IMG/VR virus record: IMGVR_UViG_2877285697_000006
Span: 1-36,292 of that record
Direction: 5' to 3' (one strand)
Origin: a virus
Taxonomy: Duplodnaviria > Heunggongvirae > Uroviricota > Caudoviricetes
Length of the DNA: 36,292 nucleotides
Both the position numbers and the translations under genes were made by a program. A model generated the notes under the pieces. The model did not search any database and had not been told where the DNA came from. It was given only the letters and a program-made list of their open reading frames with translations. This document shows, one piece after another, positions 11,231 to 19,210 of the stretch (within the stretch, counting starts at the first letter, position 1; every line of letters begins with the position of its first letter).

Positions 11231-13660
11231 TTACATCTTACGGCGCTGTGCGTCTTCTACCGCCTGAGCAACTAACTTAGCGTGACGTTTGATAGCATCC
11301 ATGACCATCTTGTCTGAGCTATTAACGTTGCCGTTAATGTTCAAAGGCGCATTAACTTCAATCGGTTGAGAGTTGCCACCGCCTGATTTTTGAGCAGAAA
11401 GGAAGTCTTTCAAATCACCGTTGGTACGCTGATCAACTACTCGTTCACCCTTATCAAGCAACCACGTACCTTCTTTGGGGATACTGTCAATACCATCATG
11501 TGACATTCCTGTTAAATTTGTTGATTTAATGTTGGCAATATTTCCCATGTTCTGAGAAACAGCCAATGCAGCAGCAGCGATTTTTTGACCTGTGGTTACG
11601 TTGGTCGGATCGTTCCATGCATCGGTAGCAGCCGTCCACATGTTCATCGTCGCTTGTCCGATAGAGAATGCTTTATGAGCATTGAAAGCCATCTGCATAG
11701 CTTTAGTGTTTTCCTGCCCGAAAAGAGTCATTGCAGCAGCAAAACCGCCATACATATCATCGGCTATTGACTGGCGAGCATCAGCATATTTCTTTTCAAT
11801 TGCAGCCATCCGTTTTTGATGGTTTTCATTGAGTTTTTCTAATGCTTCCATCCGTTTAGCCGGATCGGTGATCCCATCAATCTTGAGTTTATCGGTCTTA
11901 TAATCTTGTTCAGCATCCGATTTCTCTTTATCGATTGCATTAAATTTAGCAAACGGATTATTTGAGTCTTGATAATCATAACCACTAGTTAATTGATTGG
12001 TTTTATAACCATCCATTCCCTGTAAAGAATTTTCAATCTGAGAATAGTTTTGCTCGGTATCGTTCACACGACGCATATATTCTTCGTAGGAGATAGCTTT
12101 ACCATCAAGTAACCGTTTATGGCTTTCTAGCTCGTTGTCCCTGATTTGTTGCAATTGTGTTAAAGCATTCAGAGCATCAATCGGATCAGCACCCAACATC
12201 ATTTTATAAACGTTTTCAGTATTCTGATCGATTAGCGCCTGGCGTTTCGCGGCTGCGTCTTCCTGAGAGATTAAGCCCAGAGCTAACGCGTCGTTCACAT
12301 CTTTTAAGCTGTTTTGCAACTGGCTATTTTGAGAAGTGATAGACGCTGCAACTTGCCCTTGCAATTTAACATCAAGTGCATTCAGTCGCTTGATTGCATC
12401 CTCGCGTGCTTTCTGTGCTTTTTCTGCGGCTTCCTTAGCCTTTTTAGCTGCCTCTTCCGCTTTCTTTTTGGCTTCTTCCTCGGCTTTCTTCTCGTTGCCA
12501 GACTTACCCAATGAAGCTGGTCGAGTTGGTGTAGTCGGGATAGTCAAATCACGGTTAGGATCTGCCTTACGGGTTAGATGTTCCCCGTTATCGACAACAA
12601 TCAGAGAGCCATTTTTCTTATAAGAATCACCAAAACGTTTCTTAAATCCTTCAACATCAAAGCCAGCAGTACGAGGATCGACACCAGCACCACGGATCGC
12701 GGCCTTTTCCCAATCTGCCAGATTATTCCAACGCTTTTCTTTATTGTACTTGTCAATAATCTTTTGAGCGTCTTTATGGTTGGCGTTAAGAATACCACCA
12801 GTTGCGGTCTTACCTTCTTTATTCAGACGGTCTAATGCCCTGAATAGAGAACTCTTTTCCCAATCAATATTAAACCATTCGAATAACCAGTTTAAACTAT
12901 CAACCAAAGGACCAGTAATGGTCATACCGACACCTTTCAGGTTATTTTCCAGCTTATTGATATTTTGAGAAAATTTATCATATTTTTTAGCGTTTTCTTC
13001 GGTGACGTTAACAGATTGATTCTGAATAGCGATCATCGCCTCTTGAGCACTATTATATTTCTCAAGCTGGCTGGTCATATGGCTTGAATCACTGGCCAAA
13101 GATTCCATCATGAACTTGATTTCAGCCATTGATTTTCCTGCTTTCTTCAGGTCATAGAACACTTGGATCGCCGCTTTCATACCACCTTGCGGATCAGTCA
13201 TGAAGTGAGCATAGTTTTCTAACTTAAGGCCAACCGATTCTAAATCATCGGCAATACCACCACCGTTAGCCCATGCATCACCCATTTTATCTAAGGTGTC
13301 TTTGTTGATATCACCAAATTTTTCAACTGTTAAGCCAGTACCAGAGAACTCCTTTTCTAATTTTTGAAGGGATTCAATCGAGAGTCCGGTCGCCTTAGAT
13401 ACTTCTGAATACTGTTTAACGTATTCCGCGCCAGCTTTAGCGGCTGCAAAAACTGCGGTCGCAACTAAGCCGATACCACCAGCAGCCAAACCAGCAGAGC
13501 CAGCGATCCCACGAAGAGATCCAGTCAAACCAGACAAACCACCGCCAAAATCGATATTACTTGCCTTTTCAGACAAACTATCTAGAAGGTTAGCGGCTTC
13601 ATTGGTACTTCTCCTTAGACCTTTATTATCCCCTTCTATTGTTACTATATGTTTTGTCAT
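11231..13660 (-). CDS. tail tape measure protein
   Basis: 809 aa, alanine/glycine-rich N-terminus, long coiled-coil and lysine/glutamate-rich repeats, position after G/T chaperones. Confidence 0.85.
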   Translation of the reverse strand: MTKHIVTIEGDNKGLRRSTNEAANLLDSLSEKASNIDFGGGLSGLTGSLRGIAGSAGLAAGGIGLVATAVFAAAKAGAEYVKQYSEVSKATGLSIESLQKLEKEFSGTGLTVEKFGDINKDTLDKMGDAWANGGGIADDLESVGLKLENYAHFMTDPQGGMKAAIQVFYDLKKAGKSMAEIKFMMESLASDSSHMTSQLEKYNSAQEAMIAIQNQSVNVTEENAKKYDKFSQNINKLENNLKGVGMTITGPLVDSLNWLFEWFNIDWEKSSLFRALDRLNKEGKTATGGILNANHKDAQKIIDKYNKEKRWNNLADWEKAAIRGAGVDPRTAGFDVEGFKKRFGDSYKKNGSLIVVDNGEHLTRKADPNRDLTIPTTPTRPASLGKSGNEKKAEEEAKKKAEEAAKKAKEAAEKAQKAREDAIKRLNALDVKLQGQVAASITSQNSQLQNSLKDVNDALALGLISQEDAAAKRQALIDQNTENVYKMMLGADPIDALNALTQLQQIRDNELESHKRLLDGKAISYEEYMRRVNDTEQNYSQIENSLQGMDGYKTNQLTSGYDYQDSNNPFAKFNAIDKEKSDAEQDYKTDKLKIDGITDPAKRMEALEKLNENHQKRMAAIEKKYADARQSIADDMYGGFAAAMTLFGQENTKAMQMAFNAHKAFSIGQATMNMWTAATDAWNDPTNVTTGQKIAAAALAVSQNMGNIANIKSTNLTGMSHDGIDSIPKEGTWLLDKGERVVDQRTNGDLKDFLSAQKSGGGNSQPIEVNAPLNINGNVNSSDKMVMDAIKRHAKLVAQAVEDAQRRKM

Positions 13661-13671
13661 AAATTACCCCT

Positions 13672-14013
13672 TTAACCGCTTCTGAGTTTCTCAAGCAAAG
13701 ATGGATCAAACATGTTCAGCATTGCCGCTTTACGTTCTTCTTCTTTCTTGCGTGCAATTTCTTCCAGTTCTTCTTTAGTTTTAAAGAGTTTTTCTTCTCT
13801 AATTAATTGGAATTGGCTAGGCTTGAGTTTGCGTGCAGTTTCGCGTGTCATTCCTTGCGACGTCATATACATGGAATATTGCAACATCGCATTCTGCATA
13901 TCATGAAACGCGGGGCTTTGTGGTTCTAAGTAGGTGTCGAAAATGTATAATTTCCAAAACAGAGTGATTGGCATATTATCCATTTCATCTTTACTAAGCC
14001 CCGATCTCATCAT
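13672..14013 (-). CDS. tail assembly chaperone T segment (likely made only as G-T fusion by -1 frameshift)
   Basis: No SD before its ATG; frame is -1 relative to G and open from 14058. Confidence 0.5.
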   Translation of the reverse strand: MMRSGLSKDEMDNMPITLFWKLYIFDTYLEPQSPAFHDMQNAMLQYSMYMTSQGMTRETARKLKPSQFQLIREEKLFKTKEELEEIARKKEEERKAAMLNMFDPSLLEKLRSG

Positions 14014-14042
14014 TTGCCGAAAGTAGAAATTCAGAAGCGGGT

Positions 14043-14351
14043 TTACTTTACCTCGTTTTCAATTACTACCGCATCTTGCATCAATGACGCTTGAGCAACC
14101 AAACCGATTAATTCACTGCGGACGTTAGTATACAGTGCCTTAACTTGTTCCATAGATTCAAATACCGGCTTACCGTCTTCATCTTCAATACAACGAAGAA
14201 TAGAACGTTCATCACGGTCATCTTTATCAGTATTGAAAACATGTTCGTTAAATTCTTTTACCGACATAGGGCGAGCATAGAAAGTAAATCCACCGATGGT
14301 CAGAGATTCACGTTTCGGAGAAAGAGCTTTCAGCATTTCATTAATATTCAT
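14043..14351 (-). CDS. tail assembly chaperone, gpG-like
   Basis: 102 aa, directly upstream of T segment and tape measure; conserved G/GT architecture. Confidence 0.55.
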   Translation of the reverse strand: MNINEMLKALSPKRESLTIGGFTFYARPMSVKEFNEHVFNTDKDDRDERSILRCIEDEDGKPVFESMEQVKALYTNVRSELIGLVAQASLMQDAVVIENEVK

Positions 14352-14393
14352 TCTTGTTTCCTCTTAAGTTAATTCGATATGTTTATTTAGAAT

Positions 14394-14900
14394 TTAAGAG
14401 ATTTTCAAAGTCTGCTTAGTGCCAGTCTTCTTAATGTTATTGAGGAAAGCAGCCGGAGGATTGCTTAACCAATAGTAATGAAAACCACTTTGCATACTGT
14501 TATAAGGAACAGTGACAGCCGCACCACCCAAATTAACCGTTATATTCCCCGCTCTGCCGTTCTGGAGATATACAGCCATAGTAGGAGTACCACCATTGAA
14601 TTGACCAACGATAACGCCAATTAGACGGCCTACGCCCACGTTTTCGGAGTTCTCCATTGACCCTTTACCGCGCATGTCAGTTACTGGATAGTTAGAAGCA
14701 GTTACACCCCAGTTATTACCCAATGAAGTAGACCACGCAGCAGTAGCTACAACCGTATCCATACCACGACCAGCCATTGCCGACATATTACGCGGAGCCG
14801 GAACTTTTAAAGCTGTTAATGCTTCTTTCATCCATCGCTTACCCGTCACCGATACAGCAGATGACCCGATCCAGCCAGGAACTTTAACGACATTTGCCAT
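14394..14900 (-). CDS. tail protein (major tail or tail terminator candidate)
   Basis: 168 aa, SD GGAG upstream, immediately upstream of G/T. Confidence 0.4.
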   Translation of the reverse strand: MANVVKVPGWIGSSAVSVTGKRWMKEALTALKVPAPRNMSAMAGRGMDTVVATAAWSTSLGNNWGVTASNYPVTDMRGKGSMENSENVGVGRLIGVIVGQFNGGTPTMAVYLQNGRAGNITVNLGGAAVTVPYNSMQSGFHYYWLSNPPAAFLNNIKKTGTKQTLKIS

Positions 14901-14914
14901 TTTGATTACTCCAA

Positions 14915-14943
14915 TAAAAAAGCCCCACCATTAAGGCAGGGCT
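14915..14943 (-). terminator. rho-independent terminator (AGCCCUGCC-uuaau-GGUGGGGCU + U6), shared with the MCP locus
   Basis: 9-bp stem including GU pairs, followed by TTTTTT on the minus strand; near-identical to 20862-20888. Confidence 0.6.
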
Positions 14944-14948
14944 TAAAA

Positions 14949-15074
14949 TTAATTCTTAGCCTTGCGGCCTCGTTTTGCTGTGGCTTTCGCCGTAACTTCT
15001 TCTACTTCTGGAATCACCACCGCTTCATGTTCTGGTAGTAGTTCCGGTTCTATTAAAGGAAGTTCTTCGTTAGT
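14949..15074 (-). other. 41-codon in-frame open extension after the UGA stop of the upstream gene (possible readthrough extension)
   Basis: Translates TNEELPLIEPELLPEHEAVVIPEVEEVTAKATAKRGRKAKN; no start codon; homologous to the extension after the MCP gene. Confidence 0.4.
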
Positions 15075-15545
15075 TCATCCAGCGGTAAACACTTCCTGTT
15101 TGATCGGCTTTCCATCCACCGCGAAGGTGAACTCTTTGGTTACAACTTCTTCATCGCCACCGTTCATAGCAACTTTAGAAATAAAGCCGTTGAAAGCGGT
15201 GCGAATACCAGTCTGCTTATCCGCTGATACGTAATACTCTACTTTAATCTGGATTCGAGTACCATCTTCGGCAGCTTTGATCAATTTTTCGTGGACACTA
15301 TCCCCGGGGATGTAATTCACCGTAAGAGTCAGATCAGGAACATTCAGTTTACCTACCAGCTTACGGTTGTACTGAGAAGAGAAGGATTTAACTTCTACAG
15401 TACCGCGCTCGATAGCAGTTTCCGGGAATCCGGCGCACTCTTTAATTTCTTCGTAACCGGAGTGATCGAGAGTGGTATTAGTGGTATCCGCGTGATAGAA
15501 CAGACTTACCAGACCACCAGTAAAAATATCATTAAATTGAGACAT
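15075..15545 (-). CDS. major tail (tube) protein candidate
   Basis: 156 aa, strong codon bias, SD AAGGGG; carries the same 3' module as the MCP gene. Confidence 0.45.
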   Translation of the reverse strand: MSQFNDIFTGGLVSLFYHADTTNTTLDHSGYEEIKECAGFPETAIERGTVEVKSFSSQYNRKLVGKLNVPDLTLTVNYIPGDSVHEKLIKAAEDGTRIQIKVEYYVSADKQTGIRTAFNGFISKVAMNGGDEEVVTKEFTFAVDGKPIKQEVFTAG

Positions 15546-15601
15546 AGAATTACCCCTTAATTAAAATTGTTATTACGGGGGAACTAGTCCCCCGACTTTT
15601 A

Positions 15602-18600
15602 TTATTTAGTTGCTTTGAGTTCGGCAATCTCTTTAGTCAATGCTTCAATCTTAGCTTGATATTTGGCGTCCATTTCCTGAATAGCTTTAATAATCAAGGC
15701 ATTAACAGCAGAGTTAGAAATAGTCTTAATTGCTTCCGGTTGTTCTGGATCTTCGGTGGATTGAATACCTACTGCTTCCGGCAATACTTCCTCCAGATCC
15801 TGAGCAATAATACCGACTTCGCGTTTAATCACTGTGTCATCGGAAAGAGATTTAACTTTATCGTATGTGTAGACTTTCAGGGAGTTTACTTTCTCTAATG
15901 CGCCGTCCTGTAATTCTTCCTTGTTAATCTTCAAACGGGAGTCAGAGCGAATGTAAACATCGTTAAAGCTACCGTTGCGATGAGCATTAAAATCACCGTC
16001 CATAGTAAATTCCCAGCGTGCTTGCTGCCCGTTGGCGTTATCACCTCGCATACGGATAATACCAGTACGCCAACCGTGAGTCGAACCGCTACCCGTCCAA
16101 CCAAACTCGAAGGACTGACGATAACCAACATCACCTAAGTTACTATAGCCAGCGATAATAGGGAAATATGCACCAGACTCCTTAATACTATCCATGTTAA
16201 CCAAGAATGGAGCACGGTCACGAGTTACATCAGAGATATCGGCATAACCGAAACCGTTTTTGTTGGCAACAACAACACGACGGTTAAATGTAACACCGCC
16301 TGACGTATGGCGAACAACATTAACATTATTAGCGTAGGTATCAAGAACACCATCACCGTTTTGTTTAAATCCAGTATCACTATCGCCTAAAACAATAGAA
16401 TTTCCACCCAATCCGTTAGCAACACCAACACCAAAACCGCTATTAAACTTAGGAATGGTTGCATCCTGACTAATAGACAGTTGGGGAGCGTTAATTTTAC
16501 CGTTTACGCTAAACTCGATTGCGGTAGTACCGGGACCGCCAGCACGCTGTGTGTAGAAATGCCAGCCGCTTTCATCTGCGCATTCTAATACTTGTTTACG
16601 AGTATCATTACCCCATGCACGAATATTGAAGCTAGATTGTCCGGTATTCTTACCCCATCGCATTTGACCAGCAACTTCAAGATCACCTAAGAAATATGCC
16701 TTTAGTCCACCTGTAGCCATATTACGTTCAGTGCTGAAATGTCGGCCTTTACTGTCTTCGAGATATAGAATGTTATCACGGGCATTATTGCTGTCGCCCC
16801 AATGGTTAAACCGGAAATAGTCTCTAGATTGTCCAGCACCAGCATCAAGTGTTAAATGTTGACCTTTGATGAAAGCGTTTCCAGCGAATCGAGCGGCTTT
16901 GCTTGCACGTTCTAACGTTAATGCGTCTCCGTTACCGTCACCGCCTAATTGAACGTTACCGGAAGTTAAATCATAAATGAATGGACGGTAAGTATTCCAA
17001 CCACCAAATTTATCATTTTCAGCCGTTGACAGAAGATAAACTTTAGCGGAGTCATTACGCCAGAATGCACCATAATTGCCGTAAATCATACGAAATGCGT
17101 TATGGTTGGCAGCAACATATTCGCCGTTAGTATAAACTACTTTAGTAGATCCAGTATTCAGAGAGATTTGACCGCTTTGTTCTAAGCCAATATTGTTAGT
17201 ACCGCTATCGTTATACATCTGCATAGCGTTAGTATCGGCATTTCCATAACCAACCCAACCTTGACGCTTATTTGCACCGTTGCGAGTGTCCCAATATTCC
17301 AGATAGTTACTTTGTCCGGTTGGTCGCTGCATACGAATAGTATTAGATCCGGCATCAAAAACAGCTTTACCAGTATACATAGTGCGTCCAGTGATTCGTA
17401 GAACTTCGCTAGAATCGGTAGTGCCAGTCGCTAAACGATATACGTTACCTTGAACAGTTTCATGCCAGATTGTTTCTGCGGCTTTACTACGGAATTTACG
17501 CAGATATTTTTTACCAGTACCTGAATCGTTATTCAAACTGACAATATCATATGTTCCCTGACCGTTATTATCAAACATCAACGTTCCGGCCTTGTTTTCG
17601 GTGTTGAACATTGTAATAACACGTCCATCAGTAACACCAGTAGACGGCTTAACGAGAGTTATTTCAGGAACGTCATGTACCGTCAGTGTAACATCGTTAG
17701 TTTTACCATATTCGACAATAACGTTATCGGTATAACGACCGTAGTTAACGTAGATATCGTAGTTATCACCGGAAGTATTAACCGCAAATACTTGATGAAT
17801 ATTTTTAGCATTTCGACGATAAGCCGCAATACTAACGCCTTTCGGGTTTCCGTTGCCGCTACGAATGACGATTTCTACAAAGTCAACCTGATCATAGGAG
17901 TTAACGTTATAACCGTTACCACCGAAGATACGAAGCATTACCATTCGACCAGTTTGTGGGATCGTGGCGGTTGCGATTTTGAAATAACCGCGAGTCGCAT
18001 CACCAGCCGGAACAGACATTTTAACGTTTTTAACAAACATCTTGTCAACTTCGGCTTTGGTATATGCGCCAATTTCAGCAGGAGTCGGTTTATCCCCTTC
18101 GTGATACATTTTATAGCTAAACGCTTTTTGTCCTTCTCTATCAAAACCATAGGTTTCAACACGAGATCCACCAGACGCATAACGGAAAGTAAATCCGCGA
18201 CCGTGCGCTTTACCGGAAGAGTGAGGAACGTTAAGAGTTAGATCCATGAGTCCATCTTGACCATTGGTACGGAAAGCACCGAAGTAATTAAGATCTCTCG
18301 CGGTTGAATCTTCCAGATAGTTACCAGTCTTGCTATACAAATACGCGCCGTGATAGGTCTTTGTGTTCTTCTTGATGTAAAGAGCATCGTTAGTACCTTC
18401 AATACCATCAATTCGCTTGTTGGCGGCTGCAATCGCTGCGTCGGCACTGGCCTTGTTATTTGCAACAGTTCGTTCAATGGCTGTCTTATTCGCAGAGACC
18501 GTACTAGTAAGACTGGTGATCTTCGTGTCCGCGTCTTTCTTATTATCGGAAACAGTTTTTTCGATCGCTGTCTTGTTCGCGGAGACAGTACCCGTTAAAC

Positions 18601-19210
18601 TAGAAATTTTATTATCAGCGTCGGTTTTATTCGCGGTAACAGTCTTAGTTAAATTGCTAACATTGGTGTTGGTAGCATCGACTCGCGCGTTAGTATTGGT
18701 ATTGTTGGTGTTAACGGTATTAGTAAGAGTAGTGATCTTACTGTCTGCATCTTTCTTATTGTTCGCGACGGTAGTCTCAATCGCTGATTTGTTCGATGCA
18801 ACGGTGTTAGTTAAGCTGGTGATCTTAGTATCAGCATCAGCTTTATTCGCCGTTACCGTCTTAGTTAAGTTGCTAACATTGGTGTTGGTAGCATCAATGC
18901 GCTTATTGGTTGCGGTGTCTTTAGTGGTAATAGTCTGATTCAGTTCAGATTTAGCAGCAGCCAGATTATTAGCGGCTTCTTGTTTGTTGGAAGAAATAAC
19001 ACGGTCAGTGTTGGTTTTATTCTGGTCTACTTTCGTGTTAAGTTCAGCGTGTTTTTCTGGAGAAACACTAATTTGGACTACGTTATTATTTTTGTCTTTG
19101 GTGTAAATCACATGGTCCGCCAGTTGTAAAGCGATCTCACCCTGTGATAATTGTTCCGGCGTTGGTTTTTTACCAGCCGTTTGTGTGCGTTTAAATTGGA
19201 TCGATTTCAT
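15602..19210 (-). CDS. tail fibre protein with C-terminal intramolecular chaperone (peptidase S74-type) domain
   Basis: 1202 aa; ~33-aa repeats (TKTVTANKxDADxKISSLT...); C-terminus SDSRLKINKEELQDGALEKVNSLKVYTYDK...GIIAQDLEEVLPEAV fits the auto-cleaving chaperone motif. Confidence 0.8.
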   Translation of the reverse strand: MKSIQFKRTQTAGKKPTPEQLSQGEIALQLADHVIYTKDKNNNVVQISVSPEKHAELNTKVDQNKTNTDRVISSNKQEAANNLAAAKSELNQTITTKDTATNKRIDATNTNVSNLTKTVTANKADADTKITSLTNTVASNKSAIETTVANNKKDADSKITTLTNTVNTNNTNTNARVDATNTNVSNLTKTVTANKTDADNKISSLTGTVSANKTAIEKTVSDNKKDADTKITSLTSTVSANKTAIERTVANNKASADAAIAAANKRIDGIEGTNDALYIKKNTKTYHGAYLYSKTGNYLEDSTARDLNYFGAFRTNGQDGLMDLTLNVPHSSGKAHGRGFTFRYASGGSRVETYGFDREGQKAFSYKMYHEGDKPTPAEIGAYTKAEVDKMFVKNVKMSVPAGDATRGYFKIATATIPQTGRMVMLRIFGGNGYNVNSYDQVDFVEIVIRSGNGNPKGVSIAAYRRNAKNIHQVFAVNTSGDNYDIYVNYGRYTDNVIVEYGKTNDVTLTVHDVPEITLVKPSTGVTDGRVITMFNTENKAGTLMFDNNGQGTYDIVSLNNDSGTGKKYLRKFRSKAAETIWHETVQGNVYRLATGTTDSSEVLRITGRTMYTGKAVFDAGSNTIRMQRPTGQSNYLEYWDTRNGANKRQGWVGYGNADTNAMQMYNDSGTNNIGLEQSGQISLNTGSTKVVYTNGEYVAANHNAFRMIYGNYGAFWRNDSAKVYLLSTAENDKFGGWNTYRPFIYDLTSGNVQLGGDGNGDALTLERASKAARFAGNAFIKGQHLTLDAGAGQSRDYFRFNHWGDSNNARDNILYLEDSKGRHFSTERNMATGGLKAYFLGDLEVAGQMRWGKNTGQSSFNIRAWGNDTRKQVLECADESGWHFYTQRAGGPGTTAIEFSVNGKINAPQLSISQDATIPKFNSGFGVGVANGLGGNSIVLGDSDTGFKQNGDGVLDTYANNVNVVRHTSGGVTFNRRVVVANKNGFGYADISDVTRDRAPFLVNMDSIKESGAYFPIIAGYSNLGDVGYRQSFEFGWTGSGSTHGWRTGIIRMRGDNANGQQARWEFTMDGDFNAHRNGSFNDVYIRSDSRLKINKEELQDGALEKVNSLKVYTYDKVKSLSDDTVIKREVGIIAQDLEEVLPEAVGIQSTEDPEQPEAIKTISNSAVNALIIKAIQEMDAKYQAKIEALTKEIAELKATK
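18430..18960. repeat. tandem ~99-bp DNA repeats inside the tail fibre gene
   Basis: Repeated units visible on the DNA; produces low-complexity antisense ORFs. Confidence 0.6.

Follow-up and report, generated by a model that had tools for sequence, protein, structure and literature searches.

A probable lambda-type −1 frameshift at G_GUA_AAG linking the G and T tail assembly chaperone ORFs of an uncharacterised E. coli prophage

The window, by which we mean the whole 36,292 nt stretch of viral DNA that was analysed (IMG/VR record IMGVR_UViG_2877285697_000006), carries a group of tail genes on its minus strand. In the direction of transcription, these genes encode a tube protein, a gp38-like adhesin, the products of two small ORFs that we call G and T, and a tape measure protein. 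G and T are thus the two small ORFs located between the tube and tape measure genes, with the gp38-like gene intervening between the tube gene and G. The features of this region are as follows.

19210–15602, minus strand: long fibre gene, 1202 aa.
15545–15075, minus strand: major tail (tube) protein gene, 156 aa; match to PHROG 158 (E=7e-22) and weak Pfam matches to lambda-like TTP families.
14900–14394, minus strand: gp38-like adhesin gene, 168 aa; match to PF21721 (E=4e-15).
14351–14043, minus strand: G ORF, tail assembly chaperone, 102 aa; matches to PF16459 and PHROG 344; its ATG is preceded by a strong SD, AAGAGGA.
14061–14059, minus strand: TGA in the −1 frame, the last stop upstream of the open T frame.
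14052–14046, minus strand: candidate slip site G_GUA_AAG, in which AAG occupies 14048–14046.
14045–14043, minus strand: UAA stop codon of G, directly 3′ of AAG.
14046–14014, minus strand: eleven codons of the T frame that separate the first AUG from the candidate slip site and encode VNPLLNFYFRQ.
14013–14008, minus strand: ATG ATG in the T frame, the first AUGs and the sole possible independent start of T.
14046–13672, minus strand: T part of the predicted GT fusion, 124 aa plus stop; match to PF06223.
13660–11231, minus strand: tape measure protein gene, 809 aa; match to PHROG 13674 (E=5e-66) and tblastn matches to annotated tape measure proteins.

The tube gene is flanked by a T-even-type long tail fibre cassette (14394–19210, minus strand), which sits within this siphovirus-type tail module. 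The 1202-aa fibre gene, located upstream of the tube gene, shares 74–85% DNA identity with gp37 of RB49-like phages. One relative of the locus, from E. coli isolate 23 (L035), carries no gp38-like gene between the tube gene and G.

No close DNA match to the locus was found by megablast among GenBank phages or plasmids. Among 5426 complete E. coli genomes, 51 (~1%) carry the locus in the chromosome, at 73–99% identity, and it also occurs in proviral contigs of ~35 kb in IMG/VR. Given this distribution, the window is an uncharacterised, siphovirus-type E. coli prophage. Among isolated phages, the closest is Escherichia phage DCP80 (PQ671644, 13777–16877; L001 in our set), with 33% identity over the GT fusion. 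Its record is filed under Straboviridae/Tevenvirinae/Gaprivervirus. A lambda-like module of tube, G/T and tape measure genes, all annotated as hypothetical, is nonetheless present, and either the taxonomy or the assembly of DCP80 looks odd.

In RefSeq, PGAP gives G and T each a hypothetical-protein entry of its own, with no annotation of ribosomal slippage. Several genomes carry the label ‘cytochrome’ on one small ORF at the locus (matching 13600–14420; e.g. NZ_CM136169 and NZ_CP071263), and in NZ_CM149869 (L034) T is started at an internal ATG to give a protein of 100 aa.

To assign functions to the two small ORFs, we considered both family matches and gene position. G matches Pfam family PF16459 (Phage_TAC_13) with E=3e-4 and 21.5 bits, a score that does not reach the curated cut-off of 28.8, and it matches PHROG 344 ‘tail assembly chaperone’ with E=1e-6. 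The T frame matches PF06223 (Phage_tail_T, the lambda T family) with E=3e-4 and 21.5 bits, again short of the cut-off (25.9). When 12 diverse members of the family were compared with these profiles, Phage_TAC_13 and PHROG 344 were each matched by 10 of the 12 and Phage_tail_T by five, in every case in the expected half of the fusion. NCBIfam holds no model that matches G or T, and a profile search of PDB sequences returned noise alone, with no relative by sequence. A whole-database protein search with the GT fusion as query gave nothing at E<=0.001, even though IMG/VR and metagenomes contain identical DNA, and the word index was probably limiting for this query. Because the weak matches are mutually consistent and the ORFs are positioned between the tube and tape measure genes, we accept the two ORFs as the G and T tail assembly chaperones while noting that formal Pfam membership is not reached. 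The names given to them in an earlier sequence-only reading of this DNA are therefore retained.

The two ORFs overlap in different frames. The 3′ end of G reads ATT GAA AAC GAG GTA AAG TAA, and the −1 frame over the same nucleotides reads AAT TGA AAA CGA GGT AAA GTA AAC CCG. The latter frame, which is that of T, is open from position 14058, just after the TGA, to a TAA at 13674–13672. The overlap of G and T corresponds exactly to 14043–14061 and comprises four to five codons. As the TGA at 14061–14059 is the last stop in the −1 frame, any −1 shift into T is bounded by it on the 5′ side. Within this interval, the in-frame sequence G_GUA_AAG is followed directly by the G stop codon. A −1 shift at this site would give a product described by join(14351..14046, 14046..13672) on the minus strand, in which base 14046 is read twice and 102 residues of G are joined to 124 residues of the T frame. 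The resulting GT protein would have 226 aa, which corrects the estimate of about 224 aa in the sequence-only reading. That reading had placed T in the −1 frame relative to G with a short overlap, had described the T ATG as lacking an SD sequence and had considered the heptamer non-canonical, all of which agree with our analysis.

Two other routes into T were tried and rejected. Transcriptional slippage finds no homopolymer at the site, where the longest run of A residues is three, and the +1 frame closes after 17 codons that show no homology.

The window heptamer does not conform to the canonical X_XXY_YYZ pattern; its YYZ half alone is canonical, and re-pairing of the P-site tRNA from GUA to GGU would involve a mismatch at the middle position. 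As G_GU is an accepted variant of X_XX (PMC5009743), G_GUA_AAG can nevertheless be read as a near-canonical tandem heptamer. Near-canonical heptamers of the G_GU type include those of the cardioviruses and T7 gene 10, G_GUU_UUC (PMC5009743). In T7 gene 10, as in the window, a P-site tRNA-Val would leave GUN for GGU despite a mismatch at the middle base, and tandem slippage is still supported there. The T7 site differs in its A-site part, which is U_UUC rather than A_AAG, and in its gene context.

A second comparison is provided by natural NNA_AAG sites, including G_CGA_AAG of IS1222, A_CGA_AAG of Bacillus subtilis cdd and C_CAA_AAG of IS3 (Licznar et al. 2003, via PMC5009743, PMC4066793). At these sites, as in the window, the A-site tRNA-Lys alone has a cognate −1 codon, and the efficiency is modulated by the preceding NNA codon. 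That codon is GUA in the window and GAA in relatives, rather than CGA or CCA. Moreover, IS3 has a pseudoknot and cdd has an upstream SD, whereas no stimulator was found in the window. Work by Licznar and colleagues in 2003 reportedly places GUA in the class of NNA codons that favours frameshifting through extended wobble. Given these natural NNA_AAG sites and the G_GU variant, G_GUA_AAG represents a recognised intermediate class, one base removed from the G_GGA_AAG of lambda.

The arrangement as a whole resembles that of lambda, in which a −1 frameshift produces GT from the G and T ORFs (Levin et al. 1993; Xu, Hendrix and Duda 2004, 2013, 2014, via PMC5009743). In both cases the tube and tape measure genes enclose two ORFs, of which the second is shifted by −1 and lacks initiation signals of its own, the slip site is located near the end of G on a sequence ending in A_AAG, and no RNA stimulator is evident. 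By analogy, much G and little GT would be expected, and the match of T to the lambda T family (PF06223) is a further, weak resemblance. The window differs from lambda in that the single base distinguishing G_GUA_AAG from G_GGA_AAG spoils P-site re-pairing, that the G stop is the very next codon, that G and T score under the curated Pfam thresholds, and that a gp38-like adhesin gene is found between the tube gene and G.

We consider it very likely that a −1 frameshift at G_GUA_AAG yields a lambda-type chaperone pair consisting of G (102 aa) and a 226-aa GT. In the proposed mechanism, most ribosomes would terminate at the UAA to release the 102-aa G protein, and a minority would slip by −1 on G_GUA_AAG (14052–14046). 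The single E. coli tRNA-Lys, with anticodon mnm5s2UUU, would move off AAG (14048–14046) and onto the overlapping AAA (14049–14047). GUA would be read next, and translation would continue in the T frame to give a 226-aa GT with the junction ...ENEVK-VNPLLNFYFRQMMRSGL.... The slip could take place during translocation, with AAG in the A site and perhaps an accompanying, imperfect movement of tRNA-Val from GUA to GGU, or it could take place with tRNA-Lys in the P site while the UAA awaits release factor. Both timings predict an identical protein. If the lambda proteins are a guide, G would bind the tape measure protein, as would the G part of GT, the T part would recruit the tube protein, and a large excess of G over GT would be needed.

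Several properties of the host decoding apparatus are relevant to this proposal. E. coli has one tRNA-Lys (mnm5s2UUU), which reads AAG weakly and AAA well (PMC5009743), and A_AAG is the most shift-prone tetramer in this organism (PMC4066793). In reporters, A_AAG gave 5.6% frameshifting with the IS3 pseudoknot and 0.147% without a stimulator, compared with a background of 0.112% (PMC4066793). We infer that the slip occurs in the window, with one or other of these timings; its efficiency is probably a few percent or less. A low efficiency fits the biology, since lambda needs a G:GT ratio of ~30:1 (PMC5009743).

We then considered how the site is preserved among relatives. About 70 locus entries, with many contigs fetched twice, were reduced to 15 distinct close haplotypes. 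The sequence GGTAAAGTA(A/G) is invariant in all 15 and the flanking codons vary, for example by the change of GAAAACGAG to GAAGAATCG. The tetramer A_AAG is invariant throughout the close relatives (73–100% nucleotide identity), and a stop codon directly follows AAG in every close haplotype. One variant (IMGVR_UViG_2778260996_000020; L013/L047) carries a 3-nt GTA insertion that gives G_GTA_AAG TAG TAA; both the motif and its neighbouring stop survive, and GT would gain one Val. In another relative (L005; IMGVR_UViG_2925919700_000005, ~1455–1700), foreign sequence starting with TGAGAGATCCCCTCATAATTTCCCC interrupts G after codon 74. The inserted sequence resembles an IS10 terminus, and the chaperone gene of this relative has probably been inactivated by an IS.

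Distant relatives were drawn from IMG/VR, GTDB genomes and metagenomes, with the sequences of L070 and L071 coming from IMG/VR proviral contigs. One further contig of 10 kb (L080; JBEBQJ010000175.1), from a metagenome-assembled genome labelled Sphingobacterium yanglingense, matches L071 in G and in the slip-site region and has a near-identical T frame; its assignment to that genome may reflect a binning contaminant. The 11 lineages, at 22–100% identity, agree without exception in two respects: the T frame is −1 relative to G, with its opening ahead of the G stop, and an in-frame N_NNA_AAG lies in the G/T overlap, no more than about three codons from a common aligned position. The sites are as follows.

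Window clade: G_GUA_AAG UAA; stop adjacent.
L070 clade: G_GAA_AAG UAA; stop adjacent.
L072 and L074: G_GAA_AAG AAC UAA; stop one codon on.
L073: G_GAA_AAG AAA UAA; stop one codon on.
L076: A_GAA_AAG AAA UAA; stop one codon on.
L100: A_GAA_AAG CCC UGA; stop one codon on.
L075: A_GUA_AAG GAA ...; stop 11 codons on.
L079 and L092: A_AAA_AAG UAA; stop adjacent; canonical.
DCP80: U_UUA_AAG CCG ...; stop 12 codons on; canonical.

Three lineages (L079, L092 and DCP80) carry fully canonical heptamers that are highly shift-prone in E. coli. In the protein alignment, K102 of the window aligns with the lysine encoded by U_UUA_AAG of DCP80, and the A_AAA_AAG of L079 and L092 is located two codons upstream of that aligned lysine. 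We counted 26 in-frame A_AAG tetramers among the 7307 codons of 20 long ORFs in the window (0.36%), and the chance of finding one in a five-codon overlap is P ~0.018 per lineage. AAG accounts for just 37% of Lys codons in the window, and the Lys codon of the slip site is AAG in every lineage. The earlier proposal that tRNA-Lys re-pairs from AAG to AAA is upheld as a candidate by these data, A_AAG being invariant in close relatives and recurring in distant ones. The −1 frame and the N_NNA_AAG site, found together in 11 of 11 lineages, likewise lend support to a predicted G–T fusion made by a −1 shift as in other tailed phages.

The sequence-only reading had also proposed a shifty stop, in which tRNA-Lys slips with the stop codon in the A site. 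In its strongest form, this would be a pure P-site slip dependent on the adjacent UAA, with release-factor activity setting the ratio of G to GT. The juxtaposition of AAG and UAA is real and is preserved in the close haplotypes, including the variant in which AAG is followed by TAG (L013), and a stop also directly follows AAG in L070, L079 and L092. Known shifty stops (Weiss et al. 1987) and the +1 shift at CUU_UGA of the RF2 gene prfB (PMC5009743, PMC10885494) similarly place a slip-prone peptidyl-tRNA next to a slowly decoded stop codon. The well-studied examples, however, are +1 shifts with an SD located 3 nt upstream, whereas the window would shift by −1 and its family does not consistently keep a stop next to the site.

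The shifty-stop proposal also gains from the weakness of the A_AAG tetramer alone in reporters (PMC4066793) and from the outcome of searches for other stimulators, none of which was found. The 53 nt and 83 nt that follow the site in the window fold no better than shuffled sequences (z=0.12 and 0.41), and the 60-nt downstream segments of relatives have weak minimum free energies (−5.5 to −15.4 kcal/mol). No SD-like stimulator is conserved 6–14 nt upstream of the site in the window and its relatives. The sole clear case of such an element is in the L060 clade, where GGCGGU is located 11 nt upstream of the heptamer with an anti-SD pairing of −6.4 kcal/mol and a dnaX-like spacing. The corresponding GCGGU of the window pairs at −3.3 kcal/mol, and most haplotypes lack the element. 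A weaker SD-like element 6 nt upstream in L057 (−5.4 kcal/mol) is not conserved. The GAGG that abuts the window site was rejected as a stimulator, as it is too close for −1 stimulation and is missing in L057 and L067.

The distant lineages weigh against a slip that depends on the stop. The distance from AAG to the stop is one codon in five of the 11 lineages (L072, L073, L074, L076 and L100) and 11–12 codons in two (L075 and DCP80). With the stop adjacent in just four lineages, an adjacent stop is not required by the family, and slippage of tRNA-Lys on AAG in the A site would cover all lineages by one mechanism. We therefore regard a pure P-site slip as possible but doubtful. We hold equally tentatively to a related suggestion, namely that the window clade has a bare NNA_AAG site without an RNA stimulator and that its adjacent stop acts as the stimulator, making it a natural −1 shifty stop. 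If this were true, the G:GT ratio would be set by how release factor competes with slippage of tRNA-Lys in the P site. Short of dependence, the adjacent stop may add to GT yield in the window’s clade.

A different possibility is that no frameshift occurs and that T, as a protein of 113 aa, is made from the ATG at 14013 by SD-less re-initiation after termination of G, i.e. by translational coupling. The ATG ATG pair is present and conserved in the window’s clade and lies only 27 nt downstream of the G stop. Upstream of it, however, the best anti-SD pairing is −1.7 kcal/mol, compared with −5.9 to −8.4 kcal/mol for the starts of the fibre, tube, gp38-like, G and tape measure genes. PGAP does annotate T-like ORFs as separate genes, but these calls are a consequence of the missing NCBIfam model rather than evidence for a separate start.

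The eleven T-frame codons that precede the ATG are informative in this regard. Among seven haplotypes, this 33-nt stretch has 14 variable columns, nine of which fall at third positions of T-frame codons (binomial p=0.017), and the amino acid is kept at eight of the 11 codons. This pattern of substitution is that of coding sequence read in the T frame, in a stretch that precedes the AUG and is translatable solely via a frameshift. In the alignment, VNPLLNFYFRQ also coincides with F..R..(R/K)GL, a motif conserved throughout the lineages. Furthermore, L072, L073, L076 and DCP80 have no AUG at the position used in the window, and their first T-frame AUG is located 27–89 codons in, past the conserved motif. 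Taken together, the coding constraint upstream of the ATG, the aligned motif and the absence of the AUG in four relatives rule out independent initiation for the family, whose route to T it cannot be. Re-initiation would also leave unexplained the in-frame A_AAG that is retained in all 11 overlaps. We consider it improbable for the window as well.

If a −1 frameshift does join G to T, the slip might in principle take place at another site. The sole other Z_ZZN in the overlap is U_GAA_AAC (14061–14055), where tRNA-Asn would move from AAC to AAA. This heptamer lies inside the permitted interval and is shared by the window and the L060 clade. In L057 and L067, however, GAA AAC GAG is changed to GAA GAA TCG, so that U_GAA_AAC is destroyed (the segment reads GAAGAATCG) and G_GUA_AAG is kept. 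In addition, re-pairing of the P-site tRNA from GAA to UGA would be poor, and A_AAC is outside the six frameshift-prone tetramers of E. coli, for which cognate re-pairing of the kind available to A_AAG is the rule (PMC4066793). The two sites predict different junction peptides, ...VVIENKRGKVNPLL for U_GAA_AAC and ...ENEVKVNPLL for G_GUA_AAG. We consider a shift at U_GAA_AAC to be extremely unlikely. Equally unlikely is the notion that T is an unexpressed, decaying remnant whose overlap and motif are historical leftovers: the prophage is uncharacterised and G is disrupted by an insertion in L005, but the T frame is intact and conserved in all lineages down to 22% identity, and most substitutions in the stretch preceding the ATG are at third positions of codons.

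The proposed frameshift at G_GUA_AAG belongs to a well-known kind of recoding, the lambda-type G/GT shift at an NNA_AAG-type site, and it leaves the understanding of tail assembly and of frameshifting unchanged. What is new is this unannotated member and its family. On the reading favoured here, the correct annotation of the locus would be one G product and one 226-aa GT product made via ribosomal slippage. Near-canonical N_NNA_AAG sites at a stop codon could carry tail-chaperone recoding that predictors based on heptamers would miss. The family also forms a natural series, at nearly one position, that runs from canonical to non-canonical heptamers and from adjacent to distant stops, and this series could be used to measure the contribution of a neighbouring stop codon to −1 slippage.
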